Below, one piece after another: positions 1 to 56,087 of a stretch of DNA of 64,000 nt. Position 1 is the stretch's first letter. The number at the start of each line of letters is the position of its first letter. The notes under the pieces are model-generated. The model ran no database searches and was not told the origin of the DNA. It saw only the letters and a list, made by a program, of their open reading frames with translations. A program made the position numbers and the translations under genes. This DNA is from Candidatus Dojkabacteria bacterium (GTDB lineage Bacteria; Patescibacteriota; Dojkabacteria; J137), in the NCBI GenBank assembly GCA_030834985.1, contig JAUQWV010000001.1:120979-184978 (forward strand), given 5' to 3'.

Positions 1-421
1 CAAGCAACAACAGATCAGGATTAATTAAGTATGCAATAGCAAGATTAACTTTAGTTAGTTCGCCACCGCTTAAGGTGTTTAGTTTTTGATTCGGATCAAG
101 ATCTTTACCGCTAAAATGAGTTTTAAAAACTTCTAATACCTGCCACCACTCATCAAAATACTTGGATATATATTCATGGGCAGGTATCTTTTGATTTAAA
201 AGTTCTAAATCTAATTGAGGAACGTAATAGATAGTACCAAATAAAAATATACCTGTCTGTTGAGTGATGATTGCATTTAGTAATGAAGTTTTACCACTTC
301 CGTTTGCTCCAACTAGTCCGATTTTTTTATCTATAGATACAGAAGCAGAAACTTCTTTTAATAAAGTTTTGTTTTCGACTTCGATATTTAGTTTTTGGAT
401 TGATAGGATTTGCTTTGACAC
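1..421 (-). CDS. ABC transporter ATP-binding protein, N-terminal part (3' end beyond window edge); GTG start at 421
   Basis: Minus-strand translation reads VSKQILSIQKLNIEV...GLVGANGSGKTSLLN (Walker A)...NTLSGGELTKVNLAIA (ABC signature LSGGE), continuous to position 1. The listed + ORF 264..470 is antisense to it. Confidence 0.75.
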   Translation of the reverse strand, partial: MSKQILSIQKLNIEVENKTLLKEVSASVSIDKKIGLVGANGSGKTSLLNAIITQQTGIFLFGTIYYVPQLDLELLNQKIPAHEYISKYFDEWWQVLEVFKTHFSGKDLDPNQKLNTLSGGELTKVNLAIAYLINPDLLLL

Positions 422-467
422 ACAAAGATTATATCCTATTAGGTTGAAGATGTTTATGGATGTTGGT

Positions 468-498
468 TAGGGGCGCTGCTCAAGCGCCCCTAACCTGT
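468..498 (-). terminator. GC-rich perfect hairpin (13 bp stem ggttaggggcgct / agcgcccctaacc, 5 nt loop) downstream of the 518..883 gene
   Basis: Palindrome read directly from the sequence; it lies between the stop of the minus gene 518..883 and the GTG start of the ABC gene. Confidence 0.5.
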
Positions 499-517
499 AG
501 ATGATTGAGAGTATTGC

Positions 518-883
518 TTAGTTCAGGTAGGCGTTTTCTGGCGGGATACCGTACTTATAGTACATACTTTCTTCAAGCTCGCGTAGAAACGCGATTCGGT
601 CTTCCGCGTGTTTAATTCCTACACACAGCGCCATGAAGAATTTTTCGTACATAAACGGTCTGGTATCCATGCCTTGCGCCCACAAGTGGAATTCCCCGGC
701 AAGGAACACGCCTTCCTGCCACACCTGAAGGTGTAGTCCTACTTTCTCAGGATTAGGGCAGTCCTTGACGACGAAAACGGCGTTGATACCGTTATCCGCC
801 AGTCGGTTCTGCGCTTCTAAGCTGAGTCGTTCAAGAAGGTCTTTGGCTTCGCTGTAATCCGTGGACATTTCTACTCTCCTCAT
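518..883 (-). CDS. hypothetical 121 aa protein; visibly GC-rich relative to flanks; paralog of 1624..1974
   Basis: Intact ORF. Shares a conserved core with the 1624..1974 product (AVFVVKDCPNPEKVGLHLQV vs AIVHIDDCDENPEGEVCLQLII, plus N-terminal Y.EA.DLL.R). G+C by eye ~45-50% versus ~30% around it. Confidence 0.6.
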   Translation of the reverse strand: MRRVEMSTDYSEAKDLLERLSLEAQNRLADNGINAVFVVKDCPNPEKVGLHLQVWQEGVFLAGEFHLWAQGMDTRPFMYEKFFMALCVGIKHAEDRIAFLRELEESMYYKYGIPPENAYLN

Positions 884-984
884 TGTTTACGAGCTAATAA
901 TTTTATCAATTTTGTCGCCAGCTATCAATAACGCGTATATATAGATAATTTTGTAAAAGAGGACATGTGATATAAAATTCGTGA

Positions 985-1581
985 ATGGAAGATCAGAATT
1001 CGGAGAAAAAATTCAGTCGAAAAAAGATTAACTTTGAAACTTTTTTAAAGCTTGAAGAATTTGCAAGAGTTAATCCAACTCAGTTCAGACGTTTATGGCT
1101 GTTGTATCAATACCAGGTTTTTAGAGTAACTTTAGATTTTAGTACTGCTAATTTTATTATTAAAAGTTGGGTTGTAGATAACGCGCTGAGATCTAGGTAT
1201 CCTGAATATGTATATACAGCTACGCGATCTCAGCGCTTAGGTAAGATGTATGAACAAAAACAGGATGAATTTATTGATATGTATACAAAGCAGACTGCAG
1301 CTGAAGGTTTTGATATTTTTGATTATGCCATTAAGTCTGAGCCTGAGGATTTGTTGCATTTAACTGAAAAATCAGCCATATTCGTTGAAGATTTTTTTAG
1401 AAAGGTATTAAAACTTCCTGCTGATATATGGCAGGCAATTATTAGTGGCAACATTGAGGCTATGCAGAACGTCTATATCCCTTTACCTACAAGACTTGAG
1501 AAATACTTGGCAATAAGTCTAGCTTCTAATAACGGTAACTCGGATTTAGATGTTGATTGGGAATCTTTTTTTGAAAGTTGA
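985..1581 (+). CDS. hypothetical protein (198 aa)
   Basis: Intact AT-rich ORF flanked by the two GC-rich paralogs; no recognisable motif. Confidence 0.5.
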   Translation: MEDQNSEKKFSRKKINFETFLKLEEFARVNPTQFRRLWLLYQYQVFRVTLDFSTANFIIKSWVVDNALRSRYPEYVYTATRSQRLGKMYEQKQDEFIDMYTKQTAAEGFDIFDYAIKSEPEDLLHLTEKSAIFVEDFFRKVLKLPADIWQAIISGNIEAMQNVYIPLPTRLEKYLAISLASNNGNSDLDVDWESFFES

Positions 1582-1587
1582 GTATTT

Positions 1588-1620
1588 GGGAGCCGCGGCC
1601 TTTCAGGCGCGGCTCCCTTT
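1588..1620. terminator. GC-rich hairpin (gggagccgcg...cgcggctccc) followed by ttt; bidirectional terminator between convergent genes
   Basis: 10 bp perfect stem between the stop of 985..1581 (+) and the stop of 1624..1974 (-). Confidence 0.5.
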
Positions 1621-1623
1621 GAT

Positions 1624-1974
1624 TCAGTTCCAGACAGCTTCTGGACGAATCGATCCGTTCAGTATTTCTACAAGCTCCGATAACGACCGGAGCCCTTCTT
1701 TGAATACTTCCGCCGCTCTTTCTTGAAAGAGCAACGGGTCCATCGATTCGTATGTTTTATTCCATACCTCCTTTCTGAAACGGAATCTTGTTGCAAGAAT
1801 GGTGGCTTCTATTATCAACTGAAGACATACTTCGCCTTCAGGGTTTTCGTCGCAATCGTCAATGTGAACGATTGCGTCTGGGAGCCCACCCATTCCGTCT
1901 TCGCCCTCTCTCAGCCCTAGTTCTATTACTTTGGCTGTTCTTGCGAGAAGGTCTAACGCCTCGTGATACTTCAT
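1624..1974 (-). CDS. hypothetical 116 aa protein; GC-rich; paralog of 518..883
   Basis: See 518..883; shared DC(D/P)ENPE..V.L.LQ core; elevated G+C by eye. Confidence 0.6.
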   Translation of the reverse strand: MKYHEALDLLARTAKVIELGLREGEDGMGGLPDAIVHIDDCDENPEGEVCLQLIIEATILATRFRFRKEVWNKTYESMDPLLFQERAAEVFKEGLRSLSELVEILNGSIRPEAVWN

Positions 1975-2065
1975 GTCAGTCCCCTACCTTCTAGAGCGGC
2001 ACTATATATAACTTACGAGCACCGAATTTTAACAAATAATTATGTTATTGGAAACTGTAAACAAA

Positions 2066-5979: not shown

Positions 5980-7107
5980 ATGAAAAAATTTGCAAATGGC
6001 ATACAATTTAATAACCCTTTACACGAAGCGATATATCGGATAAACGTTGGACAAGATATAACTGAAGAGATGGCATACAATGCTTTTAGCTATACACTTA
6101 ACATTGAGGATGAAATTAATCGTGGAGTCTGCTTAGGAGTACTACTAAATGGTATAGTTTCCAAAAGACCCCAAATACATGAAATTCTCGGGATATTAAA
6201 AGCAACTCTTGACTATGATGGGATAGATATTACAAATCAAAAAAGATTGGAGATGCCTAACAATGCCCGAGTTATAGGCTATGCAGGGAGCGGTAAGAAA
6301 GGTATAAAAACTATTAATGTGTCTTCTTGCGCAGCCATCGTTGCTGCCACAGCGGGTACTTATGTGGCAAAATCATGTTCTGGTTCTACATCGTCTGTAT
6401 CAGGTTCTGCAGATTTCATTGAAATTTTAGGTGCCAATATTAGCCAAACTAATGAAGAGATGATAGATATAATGAAAAAGACTGGCTTAGGTTTCTTTAA
6501 AATTGAAAAAATGATCCCTAAGTTTGATAAGGTATATGGAGGTCATTTCTATGCACCTAATGCTCTAAGCTTTGGATTAGCAGGTATTTTATTGCCTTTT
6601 AGACCTGACAATTTATTTTACGGTTTAGCCCATCCTAATATTCACTTACTTATAAATGTACTAAAAGAATTAAATTATCGTTATGCATTCGTTGCATCAA
6701 CAACTGATGATGGAGTGCACTTTCTTGATGAGATTGGAATATTTGGTATGACTTCGGTTATTGGTATTCAGGAACATAAAATTGGTCATACTCTTACTTT
6801 CTCCCCAGCAGAAGATTTAAAATTACAAGGATACAATAGAAGTTCAATTGAACCAGGTAAGACTAGATTGGAGAATGTGAAAATGGGTGTCGATGTTTTA
6901 AGAGGGAAAGGCCAAATAGCTCATGAAGATTTGATTTGTGTAAATGCAGGAACCTTACTATGTTTAGACAAAAAAGCTAAAGACTTAACGGAAGGTTACA
7001 CTATATCAAAAGAGACTATCAAATCAGGGAAAGCAATAGAAAAATTAACTGAATTTATTACTGCAACTGGTGGTGATCTCAATACTTTAAATCAGTTTTT
7101 AGACTAA
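5980..7107 (+). CDS. glycosyltransferase family 3 fold protein (TrpD / nucleoside phosphorylase-like), divergent
   Basis: INVSSCAAIVAATAGTYVAKSCSGSTSSVSGSADFIEILGANI aligns by eye with the TrpD core [38 protein letters not shown]. The phosphate-loop GTGGD is replaced by GSGKKG and KHGNR by KSCSG. Confidence 0.55.
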   Translation: MKKFANGIQFNNPLHEAIYRINVGQDITEEMAYNAFSYTLNIEDEINRGVCLGVLLNGIVSKRPQIHEILGILKATLDYDGIDITNQKRLEMPNNARVIGYAGSGKKGIKTINVSSCAAIVAATAGTYVAKSCSGSTSSVSGSADFIEILGANISQTNEEMIDIMKKTGLGFFKIEKMIPKFDKVYGGHFYAPNALSFGLAGILLPFRPDNLFYGLAHPNIHLLINVLKELNYRYAFVASTTDDGVHFLDEIGIFGMTSVIGIQEHKIGHTLTFSPAEDLKLQGYNRSSIEPGKTRLENVKMGVDVLRGKGQIAHEDLICVNAGTLLCLDKKAKDLTEGYTISKETIKSGKAIEKLTEFITATGGDLNTLNQFLD

Positions 7108-41424: not shown

Positions 41425-42357
41425 CTACTTCTCTGTTGCGGTGATAAGGGCGGTAATGTCTATTTTTTTCATATCCAATAAAGCCTCCATTGCACGCTTA
41501 CCTTTTTCTTTATCTTCCTGATAAATAAGCTCATTTATTTGCTTAGGAACTATTTGCCAGCTTACTCCGTACTTATCTTTACACCATCCGCATGCTTCTG
41601 CTTCTGGTACAGCAGATAATTTTTCCCAGTAGTAATCTACTTCTGCTTGATCTTCACACTCCACAACAAAAGATACTCCTTCAGTAAAATTGAAGTCATG
41701 CTGACGTCCGCTATCCATTGCTGCAACCCAGGTATTTAGTATTTTAAAATCAGTGAACATTATATTTCCTTCTTTATCAGGTTCCATTCCTGCTGGATAT
41801 CGTGTTAATGTTCCGCGCGCGCTATCTTTAAAGACTGAGATATAAAAATTACTTGCTTCTTCGGCTTTGCCGTTGTTATCTCCAGCAAAAAGAAGTGAAG
41901 GTACAATTACAGGTCGCGCTTCTCCTTCCGGGTTTGTTAATATTAATTGCCAAGACACTCCATATTTATCTTGTATCCAGCCATACCACTTACTAAAAGG
42001 GTATTTACCAAGCGGCATTAATACCTTGCCTCCCTCAGATAATTTACCCCAAAGCTGATCTAGTTTACTACGAGAATCTCCTGCATTAACGTCATTTTTT
42101 GGATCAAAATTTACAATAAAAGAGATCGATGGATTGACTTTAAAAAAGGGCCCTCCATTAAGCGTTTGAAATCTTTGTCCTGCAATAGAAAAGTCAACAG
42201 TTATTATACTGCCAATTGGCTTATTAGATGGAGTTTCGGCGTTGTAGTAGTTTATTTCTCCAAGCTCTGCGTTTTCAAAAATATTAACATAAAAACGCGC
42301 CGCTTCTTCAGCTTCGTTGTCCATCCATAACTCTACGATTAGACCGTTGCTATTCAT
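41425..42357 (-). CDS. tandem PhnB-like VOC (glyoxalase-fold) domain protein
   Basis: Two copies of the PhnB-family C-terminal motif (WIQDKYGVSWQL and CKDKYGVSWQI), each at the end of a ~150 aa domain. Confidence 0.6.
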   Translation of the reverse strand: MNSNGLIVELWMDNEAEEAARFYVNIFENAELGEINYYNAETPSNKPIGSIITVDFSIAGQRFQTLNGGPFFKVNPSISFIVNFDPKNDVNAGDSRSKLDQLWGKLSEGGKVLMPLGKYPFSKWYGWIQDKYGVSWQLILTNPEGEARPVIVPSLLFAGDNNGKAEEASNFYISVFKDSARGTLTRYPAGMEPDKEGNIMFTDFKILNTWVAAMDSGRQHDFNFTEGVSFVVECEDQAEVDYYWEKLSAVPEAEACGWCKDKYGVSWQIVPKQINELIYQEDKEKGKRAMEALLDMKKIDITALITATEK

Positions 42358-42655: not shown

Positions 42656-43480
42656 TTGGCAATGGACTCTATTACAGTTAATTCGGTTAGAATTACTAAA
42701 CCTAACAAACTTTTATACTTAAATCCCGCTATTTCAAAGTTAGAAGTGATTGAATACTACGAAACTGTTTCAAAGCATTTTATTAATGAGTTAAGTGGCA
42801 GGCCGATTAGCATGGTTAGAGCACCAGAGGGTGCTAAAGGTCATAACTTTTATCAAAAGCATCCTACAGAATCTTTTCCTGAATATATTGAGCGTGTTGT
42901 TATTAAAGAAAAGAGCAAGGACGGGGTTTATATTACAATTGATGGGCTTAACGACATTACATACTTAGTTAATATTGGTGTTTTAGAATTTCATATATGG
43001 GGAAGCAAGATTGATGATATCGAACATCCCGATAGAATAGTTTTAGACTTAGATCCATCTGTTACAAATGAGAATGTGGTAGATGACTTAAGAGAGTTAA
43101 GTCTATCTGTAAAAGAATTATTTGAGTCGAATGGTTATAAGCCATTAATTAAAACTTCTGGCTCAAAAGGTTTTCATATTTATGCTGATGTTAAAGAGTT
43201 TGATTACTCATGGGATGAACTTAAAGTTGTTGCTAAAACTATTGCCGAAAAAATGGTTAAGCAAAATCCTAAAAAGTATACTATTGAATTTAATAAAAAA
43301 GATCGAGGAACAAAAATATTTATTGATTATTTAAGAAATCAAAGGGGCGCGACCATGGTCGCGCCCTATTCTCTACGTAGTAAAGAAGGCGCCTGTATAT
43401 CATTTCCTTTTGCGTGGGATAAGCTAAAAAATATAACTCCTACATTTTTCACAATAAAAAACTATCAGAGATACTTATAA
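42656..43480 (+). CDS. stand-alone NHEJ polymerase/primase domain protein (LigD Pol domain, AEP superfamily)
   Basis: LDLDPS (catalytic Asp pair region), KTSGSKGFHIYADV, and IDYLRNQRGATMVAPYSLRSKEGACISFPF, which by recollection match the LigD Pol-domain motifs KTSGGKGLHV and VDxLRNxRGxTxVAPYSVR. Confidence 0.7.
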   Translation: MAMDSITVNSVRITKPNKLLYLNPAISKLEVIEYYETVSKHFINELSGRPISMVRAPEGAKGHNFYQKHPTESFPEYIERVVIKEKSKDGVYITIDGLNDITYLVNIGVLEFHIWGSKIDDIEHPDRIVLDLDPSVTNENVVDDLRELSLSVKELFESNGYKPLIKTSGSKGFHIYADVKEFDYSWDELKVVAKTIAEKMVKQNPKKYTIEFNKKDRGTKIFIDYLRNQRGATMVAPYSLRSKEGACISFPFAWDKLKNITPTFFTIKNYQRYL

Positions 43481-50729: not shown

Positions 50730-52574
50730 ATGAAGTCATTGATTGAGAAGATTAATGCAAACCCGAAAGCAGCCATTTTGACAGCAATAATAGGTGTTTT
50801 TGTAGTTTCAACTGCAGTGATCTTAATATTGATAGTGTCTTTAGACAATTCGATTAAAAATCCGGATTCTGTTGTTACACCGGAGGAAAAACGACAAGTT
50901 CTATCGGGGATTATCAAAAACAACACAAAGGAAGCAATTAAAGACCCTGTTACGCCAAATGCTCCGACTAATCCAACTACTGGCGGAAATCAGGCCACAG
51001 ATCCTCAAGTTCCAGTAGTTCCTCAACCTATACCAGTAGAACCGGTTGTTCCTGTTGCACCAGATCCAAAGGATTTACCCATAGTTCCAGATCTAAACGA
51101 GTATAATTATAGAGTAACTACAACGACTACTCAAAAAGGACCGTCATCAGAACTATGTAAAGCTATTACACTTTGGCATGGAGGTGGTTATATGACAGAA
51201 GACCCTTCTGCTGATTTTTTAAAAAGAGAATATCACGACTACTTTGAAAGATATCAAAGTTATAGTAAAGGTTCAGTATACGAGGGAGAAGAGTCTAACT
51301 TATCTGCATTTTACATCAATAAGTGGGGCAGAAAAGAGGCTTCTTACACTGATTATCTAAATGGGTCTTATGCCGTAAGCAATGTTTACAACCCATATCC
51401 TGAATATGATGCTTTAAGTGATGTTAGAACAACAGAAGACGACAATCTATCTGACTATACGATTGATGATTACTTTGGAGAAAACACAGAAATAATTAAT
51501 GTAACTATAGATTCAAAGGGTAATAAAATATATACAATTGTTTCAACATTCCAAACACACTGTAGTGTAAATTATAATCCTCATTTAAAGTTACCTGGCA
51601 TTGAACCATTAGTTCCCTCAACTATATATATTGTTCGAACTGTAAATGAGAAAGGTTTTGAAGTTACCAAAACTGAACGGTACTTAGATGAAATTAATGC
51701 TCAAAGCCTAGTCGATGTTACAATTTCTGAAACTGTAAGATCATTAGTGGATTATGAAAATATAAAAGATGTCTTTGAATTAGATAGTGATGTTGAAATA
51801 GTTACTAGGGATAGAAGACAGTTGCTACCTATTTTAAATACTTACGATGAGCTAGCTAGACAAGTAAACTACCTAGTAAATAGAAATCAGAACATTATAC
51901 TTCCTGTAAAAGATAATACTTTAGCAAGTTTATATGTAGCAGATTACAGACCTGAAAATTATGAGGATTTCTATTACTATCTAAAAGATATCGAGTTCTA
52001 CCCTGATACAGAATGGGGAAGATTTCTTTTTGATAGAACAATGGAAAGATTTTCGTACGATTCTAAGATAGTTTATACTGCAACAGCTTATGGCCTAGAT
52101 GGATATTATCTATATCTTGATAAGTTTGAAGATGGAGTTTCGGCTGATTCAGTAATTTCAGAAATTTTAGGTTTCCAGTCAACTACGACCCAAGTTACTG
52201 ATGGACTTGTATCCTTTGATTCTCTTGAAGATCCAATTATCGCAAAAAGGATAGAGAAATATTTTGAATATAATTATCCTATACCATCTTACCCTGTTTC
52301 TTACAGTGATTATAATTATCAAAGTACGAGTGTATTCTATGTATTTGAATATCGAGGTGATATATACAGATTAACATCTCATACTGCTGCTAAGCATGCG
52401 TACCTTACAGGTTTAGTTAAATTGGTAGATATAAACTTAGAACCATATCCTCAAACGTTGGGTGAAATTATTACTACAGTCTTTAAGTACTATAATAATT
52501 ACTTAAATATAATGGGTTGGCCAACTAGCTATCCGGAAAAGTATCCGATAAGCTACGGAGTTATTGAAGTCTAA
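50730..52574 (+). CDS. hypothetical N-terminally anchored extracytoplasmic protein with Pro-rich linker (614 aa)
   Basis: N-terminal TM, then PQVPVVPQPIPVEPVVPVAPDP linker, then a large Tyr-rich domain. Confidence 0.55.
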   Translation: MKSLIEKINANPKAAILTAIIGVFVVSTAVILILIVSLDNSIKNPDSVVTPEEKRQVLSGIIKNNTKEAIKDPVTPNAPTNPTTGGNQATDPQVPVVPQPIPVEPVVPVAPDPKDLPIVPDLNEYNYRVTTTTTQKGPSSELCKAITLWHGGGYMTEDPSADFLKREYHDYFERYQSYSKGSVYEGEESNLSAFYINKWGRKEASYTDYLNGSYAVSNVYNPYPEYDALSDVRTTEDDNLSDYTIDDYFGENTEIINVTIDSKGNKIYTIVSTFQTHCSVNYNPHLKLPGIEPLVPSTIYIVRTVNEKGFEVTKTERYLDEINAQSLVDVTISETVRSLVDYENIKDVFELDSDVEIVTRDRRQLLPILNTYDELARQVNYLVNRNQNIILPVKDNTLASLYVADYRPENYEDFYYYLKDIEFYPDTEWGRFLFDRTMERFSYDSKIVYTATAYGLDGYYLYLDKFEDGVSADSVISEILGFQSTTTQVTDGLVSFDSLEDPIIAKRIEKYFEYNYPIPSYPVSYSDYNYQSTSVFYVFEYRGDIYRLTSHTAAKHAYLTGLVKLVDINLEPYPQTLGEIITTVFKYYNNYLNIMGWPTSYPEKYPISYGVIEV

Positions 52575-52613
52575 ATGAGAATTTGGATTGTCTTTTGAGA
52601 TAAAAGTTTAGGA

Positions 52614-52639
52614 GGGGGCACCCGAAAGGTGCCCCCTTT
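52614..52639. terminator. bidirectional terminator hairpin gggggcacc-cgaaa-ggtgccccc plus ttt
   Basis: 9 bp GC stem between convergent genes. Confidence 0.55.
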
Positions 52640-52640
52640 G

Positions 52641-53537
52641 CTATCTTTCTAGTTCAGTTACTATATCTCTAAGTTCTGCAGCTTTTTCAAATTCCAGCAT
52701 ATCTGCGTACAACTGCATTTGAAACTTGATTTCTTTTAAGAATTTTTTCTGTTCAGATTTATTCATAGCTTTAAAGCTTTCGGCTTTTGCCAATAAGTTT
52801 TGTTCTTCAGCAGCTTCCTGCTCTGATTCGCTGCCCCCGGCAAAAGCCGAAAGCTGATCCTTAATCTCTTTTACGACTGTTGTAGGAGTAATTCCATGCT
52901 CTTTATTAAACTTATCTTGAATTGCTCTTCTGCGTCTAGTTTCATCAATTGCAAATTTCATAGAATCAGTAATTTTATCAGCATACATTATTACTCTGCC
53001 TTCAGAGTGTCTGGCTGCTCTACCTATTACCTGAATTAAACTAGTCTGAGATCTTAAAAAACCTTCTTTATCGGCATCTAAAATTGCTACTAACGATACT
53101 TCTGGCAAATCTAAGCCCTCTCTTAAAAGGTTAATACCAACAAGCACATCGTACTGTCCTAATCTTAATTCCTTTAATATCTTTACTCTTTCCAAAGAAT
53201 CTATATCTGAATGCAAGTATTTTGCCTTAATGCCTTTTTCAGTAAGATAGTCAGATAGTTCTTCTGACATTCTTTTTGTTAAAGTTGTAACTAGAACCCT
53301 TTGCTTTTTTTTAATGGTCGCCTGAATTTCATCTATTAAGTTTGGAACCTGTGGTTGAGTCCAATCTGATGCGTTATATAAAGGCATATCTGTATAGCCG
53401 TTTTTTTCTAAATCTTTTTTGAGGTTAGAAAATGTCTCGGGCAATGAAGGACGAACTTCTACAATAGGGTCAAGAAGCCCTGTTGGTCTAATAATTTGAT
53501 AAACAATTCCTTTGTAGTCTTTTGGTAAAATTGCCAT
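52641..53537 (-). CDS. uvrB: UvrB C-terminal half only (helicase domain 2 plus UvrC-binding UVR domain); N-terminal ATPase half absent, possible pseudogene
   Basis: [16 protein letters not shown], then [18 protein letters not shown]...[57 protein letters not shown], near-identical to recollected E. coli UvrB from ~residue 400. C-terminal [11 protein letters not shown] is the UVR motif. Only 37 nt separate it from dcd upstream, so there is no room for the missing half. Confidence 0.7.
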
Positions 53538-53574: not shown

Positions 53575-54138
53575 TTACTTTCTTGCCTTTTTAAGGGCTC
53601 TAAACTTACTTTCAGAATCTTTAAATACCCGACTCCCTACAGTATCAAGCTGACCCTGGTATTTGCCAAGGTAAGGTTTATCTGCTTTTTGGTCCATGTA
53701 ACAGAATACAAATTGGCAGATCCTTCTGTTCTTTTCTAAAACTATAGGTAAGGAATTCGCGTTGTATAGCTCTAAAGTAACTTTTCCTTTAAATCCTGGA
53801 TCTACCCATCCAGCGTTTTGAATAAATAATCCCATTCTGCCAATAGAGCTTCTACCCTCTACAAAGGCGGTAATATTATCCGGAAGTTCAATATATTCAA
53901 CCGTAGTAGCTAGTACAAAGCTATGAGAAGGTATTGCTATTTTATCTTTAACGATCTTTCTATACTTAATTTCTTCGCTCATACTTATTGTCGACATCTC
54001 TGAGTTGTCAATTTCTAAGAAGGTATCACCTAGTCTGCAGTCAATAGATGCAGGCTGAATTGATTCGTCAGTTAAAGGATCAACTACTAATTCACCACTT
54101 TTTATTAACCTTTTTAAAGTTTTGTCTGAAATTATCAT
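53575..54138 (-). CDS. dcd: dCTP deaminase
   Basis: PASIDCRLG, VDPGFKGKVTLELYN, and the dUTPase-fold length. Confidence 0.85.
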   Translation of the reverse strand: MIISDKTLKRLIKSGELVVDPLTDESIQPASIDCRLGDTFLEIDNSEMSTISMSEEIKYRKIVKDKIAIPSHSFVLATTVEYIELPDNITAFVEGRSSIGRMGLFIQNAGWVDPGFKGKVTLELYNANSLPIVLEKNRRICQFVFCYMDQKADKPYLGKYQGQLDTVGSRVFKDSESKFRALKKARK

Positions 54139-54152
54139 ATATGTTTAGTTAA

Positions 54153-55961
54153 TTATGTACGTTCTGAAAACTGTTGTCTAGAGTTGTAATCTGGTGCCGA
54201 GATATCTTCAGTCATTCCTACCAAAAATGGATCAGAGTTCTGTATAAGTGTAAGCATATCGTGTGCCATATCTCTATTAGAAATATCGTTACCAGTTGTA
54301 GAGCGTTGGTCTGTAAAGTAATCCAATTGTGTAGGTGGTCCGCTTAAGTGCATTCGCGTTTGATGTCCTAGTGGAAGCAGTTTTCTAATTACAGTTAGAT
54401 CTTTATTAGGAAATCTTGCCGCTAAATATTTATAGAATTCCATTAACTTTTGATAATATGCATTGGCATCAGCTTCCCATTGACCCTGTAAGTGCTGTAA
54501 ACCTTCAGTTTTAATAATTTTTGAACTTGTATTAAAGCCATTCGCGATCATAGCCTCATAGTCTACTTGGTCATTTTCGTTATAATCAAAATTTAGCAAG
54601 TATCCAATATCTTGTCTACCTAACGCTCTGTGTCGATTAAAGTCTCTTAATTGGGCTAATGCGGTATTAAGTACAAATAATTTATCACCTCTAATATCAC
54701 CTAGATTACCCATCTTTTCATGTCGAGTATGATTTTGGAATATAATTGAACCTATCTCTCTTTTTGCTTGATCATCTAATGTGGCCAACCAACTTAATAC
54801 TGTTGATTCTTTAAGATTAGGATATGCGGTGCAAATGTACTGCATTGCTACTAAAGCGCCACTTGGGGCGCCGTCAATAAGGGTTACTTCTGTTTGCCTT
54901 GCATAATCCACGGTGTTAGGGACGGCGCCCTCCAATAACTCATTAAATGCTGGCATTGCTTCCAAATATGCTCTTAAATTACTTACGTTTTCTCTTATTG
55001 TAAGTGTAGGATCAGTATATTTTATTAATGGTTCAAGATTCGCATTTACATCTTGCCCCTCTTCTGTTTCTGAAAGTGAAAGTGCAAATCTAAGTTGCTC
55101 TGCTAACTCTACATATTCCTGCTCGCCAGTTTCTTGCATTATTTTTATATAGTTATTGAAGATTCTTTGATTACCTAATAGGCACATAGAAGTAGTTGCG
55201 CCCATAGGAATCCAACTTCTTACTACATCTAACACTCTGGCTTTTATAGTATTGTCTTCTAATGGTTCATCTTCTGGATTGCCTGCAAACTGCTGTAGGT
55301 AACCCTGCTCAATTAATTGGTACCACTTAACGTAATTACCTTCAGCCATTGCTAATAGCTCATAATATTGCTCAATAATATGCTCTTTATCCGCTTCAGA
55401 TCCTGCAGGAATTACCGAAAAATCCATTAAATCTTCAATCCGCGGAAAATTCATCTTATTGAATTTTATATATCTGCTTGAAGATTCCTGTCCATCGCCA
55501 TACCATAGATGATGGAAAATCCAGTATGCCTGCTCTAGCGATATATTATTAAAGAATAGAAATACTGGAATCATTCCCAGGATAGATTGATGTCCATAAT
55601 CTAGTCCAAATTCCTTAATCTTTCTTGCAGCAGCAACAGGATCCATTTGTACAAGCTCCAATACTTCATCAAAGATCTCTTCATAGCTTTTTCTAGTTCT
55701 AGAGGTTCTGGCGCCGCTCCAGGCGGGAAAAATATGCTTATCTATTCCTCCTTCTGATTTCGGTTCACTAAATGGAAAGAATGAGACAATCGGTTTTGTA
55801 GGATCTTGTCTTTTAACCTGATATAGCAAGTTGTGCAGTTTACCGTCAACTTCTCTTGTTACAACATCGATAGAAAATTTAGGAGGGTGTTGTACTTCAG
55901 CTTCTGATTCTACAGATTCTGGCCGTGTTTTAGATATTTCTTGATTCTGATCTAAAGACAT
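54153..55961 (-). CDS. large ThyX-family (flavin-dependent thymidylate synthase)-like protein with duplicated-domain architecture (602 aa)
   Basis: C-terminal half: FNRHRALGRQDIGY (RHR motif) and RKLLPLGHQTRMHLSGPPTQLDYF, aligned by eye to recollected T. maritima ThyX [24 protein letters not shown]. N-terminal half: GHQSILGMIPVF and YWIFHHLWYGDGQESSSRYIKF versus ThyX GHETPFEHIVF / [20 protein letters not shown] (RHR degenerate, SxRY kept). Adjacent to dcd. Confidence 0.5.
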   Translation of the reverse strand: MSLDQNQEISKTRPESVESEAEVQHPPKFSIDVVTREVDGKLHNLLYQVKRQDPTKPIVSFFPFSEPKSEGGIDKHIFPAWSGARTSRTRKSYEEIFDEVLELVQMDPVAAARKIKEFGLDYGHQSILGMIPVFLFFNNISLEQAYWIFHHLWYGDGQESSSRYIKFNKMNFPRIEDLMDFSVIPAGSEADKEHIIEQYYELLAMAEGNYVKWYQLIEQGYLQQFAGNPEDEPLEDNTIKARVLDVVRSWIPMGATTSMCLLGNQRIFNNYIKIMQETGEQEYVELAEQLRFALSLSETEEGQDVNANLEPLIKYTDPTLTIRENVSNLRAYLEAMPAFNELLEGAVPNTVDYARQTEVTLIDGAPSGALVAMQYICTAYPNLKESTVLSWLATLDDQAKREIGSIIFQNHTRHEKMGNLGDIRGDKLFVLNTALAQLRDFNRHRALGRQDIGYLLNFDYNENDQVDYEAMIANGFNTSSKIIKTEGLQHLQGQWEADANAYYQKLMEFYKYLAARFPNKDLTVIRKLLPLGHQTRMHLSGPPTQLDYFTDQRSTTGNDISNRDMAHDMLTLIQNSDPFLVGMTEDISAPDYNSRQQFSERT

Positions 55962-56087
55962 TCAACAAAGCTGAAAGTTATTAGTTTATTCTAAAGCTCG
56001 AGTTGAAAAACTGTCAAATATAGTTCTTAAAATCGTTATCCTGTTGTAAAATATTTATGTAGGTATTTTAACTTTTACAGTCTTTCT

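Follow-up and report, generated by a model that had tools for sequence, protein, structure and literature searches.

The thyX-dcd-uvrB' locus and its two-lobe protein

The stretch of DNA analyzed here, 64,000 nucleotides of contig JAUQWV010000001.1 from Candidatus Dojkabacteria bacterium (hereafter, the window), encodes on its minus strand a tandem-domain protein of the ThyX (flavin-dependent thymidylate synthase) family. Its gene, thyX (54153..55961), is an intact open reading frame (ORF) that starts with ATG and consists of 602 codons and a stop codon. On the same strand, dcd (53575..54138), which codes for a 187-aa deoxycytidine triphosphate (dCTP) deaminase, starts 14 nt downstream of thyX. 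The last gene of the apparent three-gene transcription unit, uvrB' (52641..53537, also on the minus strand), follows 37 nt past dcd and codes for the C-terminal half of UvrB as a separate protein of 298 aa, which begins near the "IRPTGLLDP" motif. The GC content of the window is low, ∼28 to 40% per 2-kb bin and mostly 30 to 36%.

The initial annotation of this locus, made from the sequence alone, described the 602-aa product (hereafter, the window protein) as Thy1/ThyX-like, recognized duplicated domains in it, and considered the adjoining dcd to fit a thymidylate-synthesis locus. All three proposals held up. The window protein matches the Pfam family Thy1 (PF02511) in two stretches with 41 bits (E=2.3e-10; gathering cut-off, 24.8), and its N-terminal half by itself scores 25.9 bits, which is above that cut-off. 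The co-oriented dcd is confirmed by the equivalog model TIGR02274 (187.8 bits versus a cut-off of 92.8) and by the Pfam family DCD (E=6e-44), and the uvrB' product contains the Pfam domains Helicase_C, UvrB, and UVR. A 99% match to the window protein, MBE0573963.1, is listed at NCBI as [quoted passage not shown] (FAD, flavin adenine dinucleotide). A phmmer search of PDB with the whole protein produced nothing relevant, and profiles of its two halves found only weak ThyX matches there (E values of 0.01 to 0.1), such as the match of the C-half profile to PBCV-1 ThyX (E=0.011).

The predicted fold of the window protein is the ThyX fold. The high-confidence AlphaFold2 (AF2) monomer model was obtained with 125 sequences, compared with a predicted local distance difference test (pLDDT) score of 55.6 for AF2 with 9 close homologues alone. 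In this model, the same order of elements (a β-strand, helices, a β-helix-β unit, a long helix, a short helix, a β-strand, and two more helices) appears twice, first at residues ∼29 to 294 and then at residues ∼358 to 576, the two copies being joined by a two-helix linker of ∼60 residues. The N-terminal ThyX-like lobe (residues ∼28 to 315; 55017..55880, minus strand) is delineated by the hhalign match to the ThyX of Thermotoga maritima, the Thy1 score of 25.9 bits, and this topology; the C-terminal ThyX-like lobe (residues 316 to 602; 54156..55016, minus strand) is delineated by the hhalign matches to T. maritima ThyX and to the N-half and by the repeated topology.

The half-profiles used in these comparisons were built from an alignment of 125 full-length representatives of the family, and the T. 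maritima reference was identical to PDB entries 1KQ4/1O26. With hhalign, the N-half profile matched the C-half profile at E=5.6e-5, and the N-half and C-half profiles matched T. maritima ThyX at E=1.8e-5 and E=2.3e-3, respectively. It is this match between the halves, together with the repeated topology of the model, that bears out the duplication. The window protein arose by duplication of a ThyX-like lobe, and the identity between the two lobes is now ∼12% over the hhalign alignment. It combines two ThyX-like lobes in a single chain of ∼500 to 650 aa, the arrangement by which the tandem family is recognized.

Complementary conservation of active-site residues

The sharing of its active site between subunits has made ThyX a textbook case, and the enzyme is also an antibacterial drug target. 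The canonical enzyme is a homotetramer with subunits of ∼220 aa. Each of its active sites draws on three subunits, as described in section 3.1 of PMC6514825 with M. tuberculosis numbering. Subunit A contributes the RHR motif and R199 (R174 in T. maritima). The FAD phosphates are held by two residues of subunit B, S71 and R190 (equivalent to T55 and R165 of T. maritima), and deoxyuridine monophosphate (dUMP) is surrounded by S105, R107, and Y108 of subunit C (S88, R90, and Y91 of T. maritima). The inhibitor complex of PBCV-1 ThyX, in which one monomer supplies the Ser88 loop and another supplies Arg182 (PMC3498832), agrees with these subunit roles. In PMC8316439, the activation of dUMP is ascribed to R174, and S88, R90, and Y91 are described as helping in methylene transfer.

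The conservation of the corresponding positions in the tandem proteins was evaluated by column counts in the 125 full-length representatives, which are 19 to 66% identical to the window protein. Six N-lobe residues, S87, R88, S161, R163, R242, and D245, are invariant (125/125), and S87 and E159 are aligned by hhalign with T. maritima S30 and E86, respectively. The segment G123-H124-Q125-S126 (55584..55595, minus strand) aligns with T. maritima G52-H53-E54-T55 and would provide the flavin/folate-side His and the FAD-phosphate Ser/Thr; H124 is retained in 124 and S126 in 122 of the representatives. It is followed by F149-H150-H151 (55509..55517, minus strand), which aligns with T. maritima F77-R78-H79 and looks like a degenerate remnant of the RHR motif. 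The family consensus at this N-lobe position, F-[N/Y]-x, shows that the loss of the RHR Arg residues is family-wide. The putative dUMP-binding and catalytic loop Q158-E-S-S161-S-R163-Y164 (55470..55490, minus strand) is the counterpart of T. maritima N85-E86-L87-S88-G89-R90-Y91. Q158 is conserved in 124 sequences and position 164 is either Y or F in all 125; in the model, pLDDT falls to 78 at Q158-Y164, as would be expected of a flexible substrate loop. Farther downstream, R242-V-L-D245-V-V-R248 (55218..55238, minus strand) includes the likely equivalents of T. maritima R147 (R248, retained in 124/125) and E144 (D245). R266 (55164..55166, minus strand; R in 115/125) corresponds by alignment to T. 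maritima R165 and M. tuberculosis R190, the FAD phosphate contact from the neighboring subunit. The N-lobe position equivalent to R174 is occupied in the family by L or M.

The C-lobe has four invariant residues, D440, R443, R553, and R601. Its R439-D440-F-N-R443-H444-R445 segment (54627..54647, minus strand) aligns with T. maritima R74-Q75-W-F-R78-H79-R80, that is, with the RHR motif, and can be predicted to bind FAD and dUMP; H444 is found in 109 representatives (with Q in another 14) and R445 in 118. In the Y548...R553 segment (54303..54320, minus strand), R553 aligns with the dUMP-activating Arg, T. maritima R174, and Y548, kept in 124/125, occupies the N169 position. The S-x-R-Y motif was looked for in the C-lobe (RHRALGRQDIGY) and is absent there. 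Of the 125 representatives, no more than 23 have Arg at the C-lobe equivalent of R147 (R526), and the equivalent of R165 (T544) is K, D, T, or A in the family but not Arg. Taken together, the two lobes hold both the dUMP-activating Arg (R174), as R553 of the C-lobe, and the phosphate-binding Arg (R147), as R248 of the N-lobe. No single domain carries a contiguous RHR-x(7-8)-S-x-R-Y motif: the N-lobe has FHH...ESSSRY, and the set is complete only when both lobes are counted. This motif is contiguous in canonical ThyX and never so in tandem ThyX.

Many of these features had been read correctly from the sequence. The four strings quoted in the initial annotation are all present, namely, YGHQSILGMIPVF (residues 122 to 134), WIFHHLWYGDGQESSSRY (147 to 164), FNRHRALGRQDIGY (441 to 454), and IRKLLPLGHQTRMHLSGPPTQLDYF (525 to 549). 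The hhalign alignment agrees with its interpretation of the N-half GH as T. maritima H53, of FHH as a degenerate RHR, and of ESSSRY, the sole S.RY of the protein, as E86-S88-R90-Y91. Its statement that RHR survives only in the C-half is confirmed by the same alignment and the column counts, and the idea of a tandem fusion in which each half keeps a different subset of residues proved valid across the 125 representatives.

The window protein retains 10 of the 10 invariant positions and 46 of the 56 positions that are conserved in at least 75% of the sequences outside its own clade, most of the differences being conservative. It contains the N-lobe signatures of the tandem family (A-R-x-S-R, Y-G-H-x-S, G-Q-E-x-S-x-R-Y, and R-x-x-D-x-x-R) and those of the C-lobe (R-D-x-N-R-H-R-x-x-G-R, L-P, Y-x(4)-R, and the terminal R), with the exception of GGHxxY, which is changed to GNDxxN. 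This clade-specific segment, G557-N-D-I-S-N562 (54276..54293, minus strand), replaces the family G-G-H-I-N-Y right after the catalytic Arg; G558 and Y562 are conserved in 93% and 95%, respectively, of the sequences outside the clade, and N occupies both positions in all 7 clade members.

Compared with canonical ThyX, the tandem family has additional Arg residues, R88, R242, R449, and R601, along with the interlobe linker. Three of them, R88 (55698..55700), R242 (55236..55238), and the penultimate residue R601 (54159..54161, minus strand), occur in every one of the 125 tandem-family representatives, but the alignment pairs none of them with an Arg of T. maritima ThyX.

Predicted assembly and its alternatives

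Canonical ThyX proteins (TM0449, 1O26/1KQ4; M. tuberculosis, 2AF6; PBCV-1, 2CFA/4FZB) consist of four identical subunits, whereas the window protein has two diverged lobes in one chain. The pattern of the tandem family fits cleanly with the three subunit roles: the C-lobe could be expected to play role A (R443-H444-R445 and R553), and the N-lobe would combine role B (H124, S126, and R266) with role C (E159, S161, R163, Y164, and R248). Roles B and C belong to different subunits of the canonical enzyme and here would both fall to the N-lobe, so that one site would need two N-lobes and, hence, two chains. The two fused lobes have degenerated in a complementary fashion, each being without what the other keeps, and a homodimer would imitate the tetramer, with each full site made up of one C-lobe and both N-lobes. 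As opposed to the canonical enzyme, two of the four sites of the tandem form are predicted to be vestigial; the two complete sites would bind two FAD molecules per dimer. With the co-transcribed dCTP deaminase, such an enzyme would provide a short route from dCTP through deoxyuridine triphosphate (dUTP) or dUMP to deoxythymidine monophosphate (dTMP). The window protein, then, is probably a domain-duplicated ThyX thymidylate synthase that works as a homodimeric pseudo-tetramer with two sites and is served by the dcd route. The ThyX homology and fold, the duplication, the complementary conservation, and the linkage to dcd are observed; the dimeric organization, the number of sites, and the catalytic activity are what the aligned residues suggest.

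Several observations weigh against this reading. The protein scores 36.4 bits with the thyX equivalog model of NCBIfam (TIGR02170), well short of its cut-off of 87.9. The C-half by itself reaches 18.4 bits (E=0.002) with Pfam Thy1, which is under the cut-off, and the C-halves of relatives matched Thy1 at E<0.1 in only three of six cases; the identity of the C-half therefore rests on the predicted structure, the match between the N-half and C-half profiles, and the aligned RHR and R553. The subunit roles were assigned from sequence alignments of modest significance. Within the clade of the window protein, the G558N and Y562N replacements lie right beside the catalytic R553. Next to the N-lobe R174 position (one residue past it, at position 276), K or R is found in 98 of the 125 representatives (the window protein has Q276), so that the "vestigial" sites may still have some activity. 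Finally, the literature searches retrieved no biochemical study that demonstrably concerns a tandem member.

The residual K or R at position 276 and the partial retention of His or aromatic residues at C-lobe positions 411 and 414 both hint at some remaining function of the degenerate sites. They would be accommodated by a true thymidylate synthase with a different quaternary logic, be it a site formed within one chain, an assembly of four chains with eight lobes, or a set of four pseudo-sites that are all partly functional. Such arrangements appear unlikely, given that the B and C sets both reside in the N-lobe, which means that one chain cannot give both of them to one site, and that RHR is gone from the N-lobe throughout the family. 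That the protein might be a ThyX-fold flavoenzyme with another substrate or product, and not the thymidylate synthase of the cell, is considered improbable. The obvious model for it would be PolB, the C5-methylase of uridine monophosphate (UMP) and dUMP in polyoxin biosynthesis (PDB 4P5A), and another pyrimidine nucleotide could also be envisioned. PolB, however, is a single-domain protein encoded in an antibiotic biosynthesis cluster, whereas thyX of the window is accompanied by dcd and housekeeping genes.

The absence of an intact ThyX motif from either lobe alone and the strong divergence of the C-lobe are also what could be expected of a decayed, non-catalytic relic, a pseudoenzyme retained in some structural or regulatory role. 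This explanation is very hard to reconcile with losses that are exactly complementary between the lobes, with the invariance of the retained catalytic residues in 125 representatives that are ∼20 to 65% identical to the window protein, and with the intact ORF, the conserved operon, and the high-confidence predicted fold, and it must be regarded as highly improbable. A more speculative proposal, possible but doubtful, keeps the homodimer as an obligate half-of-sites enzyme in which the vestigial pockets and residues R88, R242, R449, and R601 have been put to new use, such as docking of reduced nicotinamide adenine dinucleotide phosphate (NADPH) or another reductant or binding of a regulatory nucleotide; the GNDxxN segment and the lost K/R at position 276 of the clade could then reflect a different one-carbon or electron donor in organisms whose cofactor metabolism is minimal.

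If the dimeric pseudo-tetramer is the correct picture, the complementary degenerate fusion reveals which subunit has to supply which residues, and tandem ThyX would give mechanistic studies and inhibitor design a simpler scaffold with two sites.

Distribution of tandem ThyX and genomic context

The initial annotation regarded the fusion as an unusual architecture, which is not the case. When 1.84 billion cluster representatives were searched exhaustively with a profile, 866 matched at E<=1e-3; of these, 320 had E<=1e-10 and 121 had E<=1e-30. The matches are mostly 520 to 640 aa long and aligned end to end. The JGI and NCBI pipelines already name members of this family "thymidylate synthase ThyX," and duplicated ThyX in Chloroflexi was noted in 2009 by Valas and Bourne (PMC3224940); in Chloroflexi other than Dehalococcoides, it is reported to be the only thymidylate synthase (PMC3224940). 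On the alignments, the split motifs are the signature of a large family and not a peculiarity of one gene, and the data support the view of the window protein as typical of a ThyX variant that is widespread and already annotated but structurally uncharacterized.

Full-length relatives annotated as thymidylate synthase are encoded by Microcystis phages, including gp020 of Ma-LMM01 (YP_851034.1). A 529-aa tandem ThyX is also encoded in an apparent cyanophage genome (locus L006, 6001..7590 of CAZDZR010000001.1 in GCA_964509955.1), where the neighboring genes code for NblA, PhoH, Acb5, a tail-collar protein, and RecA. The tandem form is thus present in phages. The Ma-LMM01 protein and the tandem ThyX of Chloroflexi have the same two-lobe architecture as the window protein; for the former, the tblastn coverage is 91%, and the predicted structures of the two proteins are alike over the full length (Foldseek E=2e-21; TM-score of 0.70 for the query and 0.85 for the target). 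The clade of the window protein, Dojkabacteria-like members of the Candidate Phyla Radiation (CPR), is only ∼20 to 35% identical to most members of the tandem family and differs from the rest of it in having GNDxxN for GGHxxY, Q for K/R at position 276, and a longer N terminus.

A profile search of genome contigs with a narrow alignment detected three Patescibacteria loci, and a second, word-indexed protein search with a broad alignment returned the same 16 proteins again. A search for tandem ThyX in a plasmid collection gave no match. Split (unfused) versions were sought among the short matches, with no evidence of any. Two candidates for a two-gene form were rejected: P0042 ends at a contig end, and P0103 aligns in one frame through a called stop.

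The accessible open-access reviews and evolutionary studies of ThyX either treat the homotetramer alone or are silent on the duplicated form. Liu and Yang (2004) reportedly discuss "distinctive ThyX motifs." The chlamydial ThyX, ∼529 aa long, may be a member of the duplicated group; the reviews and evolutionary papers that were searched say nothing for or against this. The activity of chlamydial ThyX has been assayed (PMC3498832). The window gene itself adds one member to an annotated family. Its wider value lies in drawing attention to the tandem family, which has no solved structure in the searched copy of PDB and is scarcely described in the accessible open-access literature.

The five fetched loci with a ThyX 64 to 65% identical to the window protein (L003, L004, L005, L007, and L009) all share the thyX-dcd-uvrB' gene order. 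In a 32%-identical relative (L011), a dcd homologue lies immediately upstream of thyX, in the reversed order, so that the thyX-dcd pairing recurs in two arrangements. Another relative, 45% identical and encoded on a 1.14-Mb chromosome, has no dcd adjacent to thyX; there, two genes (∼3.5 kb) separate thyX from nrdR and a class II-like ribonucleotide reductase gene, and a gene for uracil-DNA glycosylase lies ∼1.2 kb downstream of thyX. The L011 thyX (751..1995; ENA ERZ1292621, from a 0.2-μm groundwater fraction; dcd homologue at 20..583) aligns in a single frame through a called stop at ∼1575. This alignment suggests that the in-frame stop is either a codon recoded in a lineage with an alternative genetic code or a sequencing error.

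Among solved chains, Dcd of the window is closest to 4xjc (190 bits), followed by the enzymes from M. tuberculosis (2qxx, 102 bits), Methanocaldococcus jannaschii (1ogh, 98 bits), and Escherichia coli (1xs1, 61 bits). The M. jannaschii enzyme is bifunctional and forms dUMP, and E. coli Dcd is monofunctional. Judging by its greater closeness to 1ogh than to the E. coli enzyme, Dcd of the window may deliver dUMP directly; it would supply either dUTP or dUMP. In a CPR bacterium with very limited biosynthesis, the thyX-dcd operon indicates that cytosine deoxynucleotides, imported or salvaged, are the source of dTMP and, hence, that there is no dependence on thymidine.

The uvrB' gene probably lies outside the thymidylate function. 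No N-terminal half of UvrB was found among the window ORFs of at least 140 aa. A ∼299-aa uvrB' follows dcd in the five related loci as well, which makes it a conserved UvrB in split or truncated form. Between uvrB', which ends at 52641 (minus strand), and a convergent gene that ends at 52574 (plus strand), there is a GC-rich hairpin with a 12-bp stem and 8 GC pairs (52611..52639, no strand assigned), likely a bidirectional terminator closing the thyX-dcd-uvrB' unit. On the opposite side, upstream of thyX, a promoter-like TTGACA-18-TAGAAT sequence (55988..56017, minus strand) agrees with the consensus at 11 of 12 positions; it is no more than a consensus match, as such sites are not more numerous in this region than in shuffled sequences.

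A conventional thyX elsewhere, which the initial annotation had named as an observation that would speak against its proposal, was not encountered in the window: a tblastn search of the window and Pfam searches of 40 further ORFs revealed neither thyA nor a second thyX. These searches also identified no genes for folate metabolism, serine hydroxymethyltransferase (SHMT), tmk, or dut within the 64 kb, which are a small part of the genome. Other products encoded in the window include a Glycos_transf_3 protein similar to a nucleoside or AMP (adenosine monophosphate) phosphorylase, with a salvage function (5980..7107, plus strand), a protein with two domains of the 3-demethylubiquinone-9 3-methyltransferase family (41425..42357, minus strand), and a protein with a LigD primase-polymerase domain (42656..43480, plus strand).

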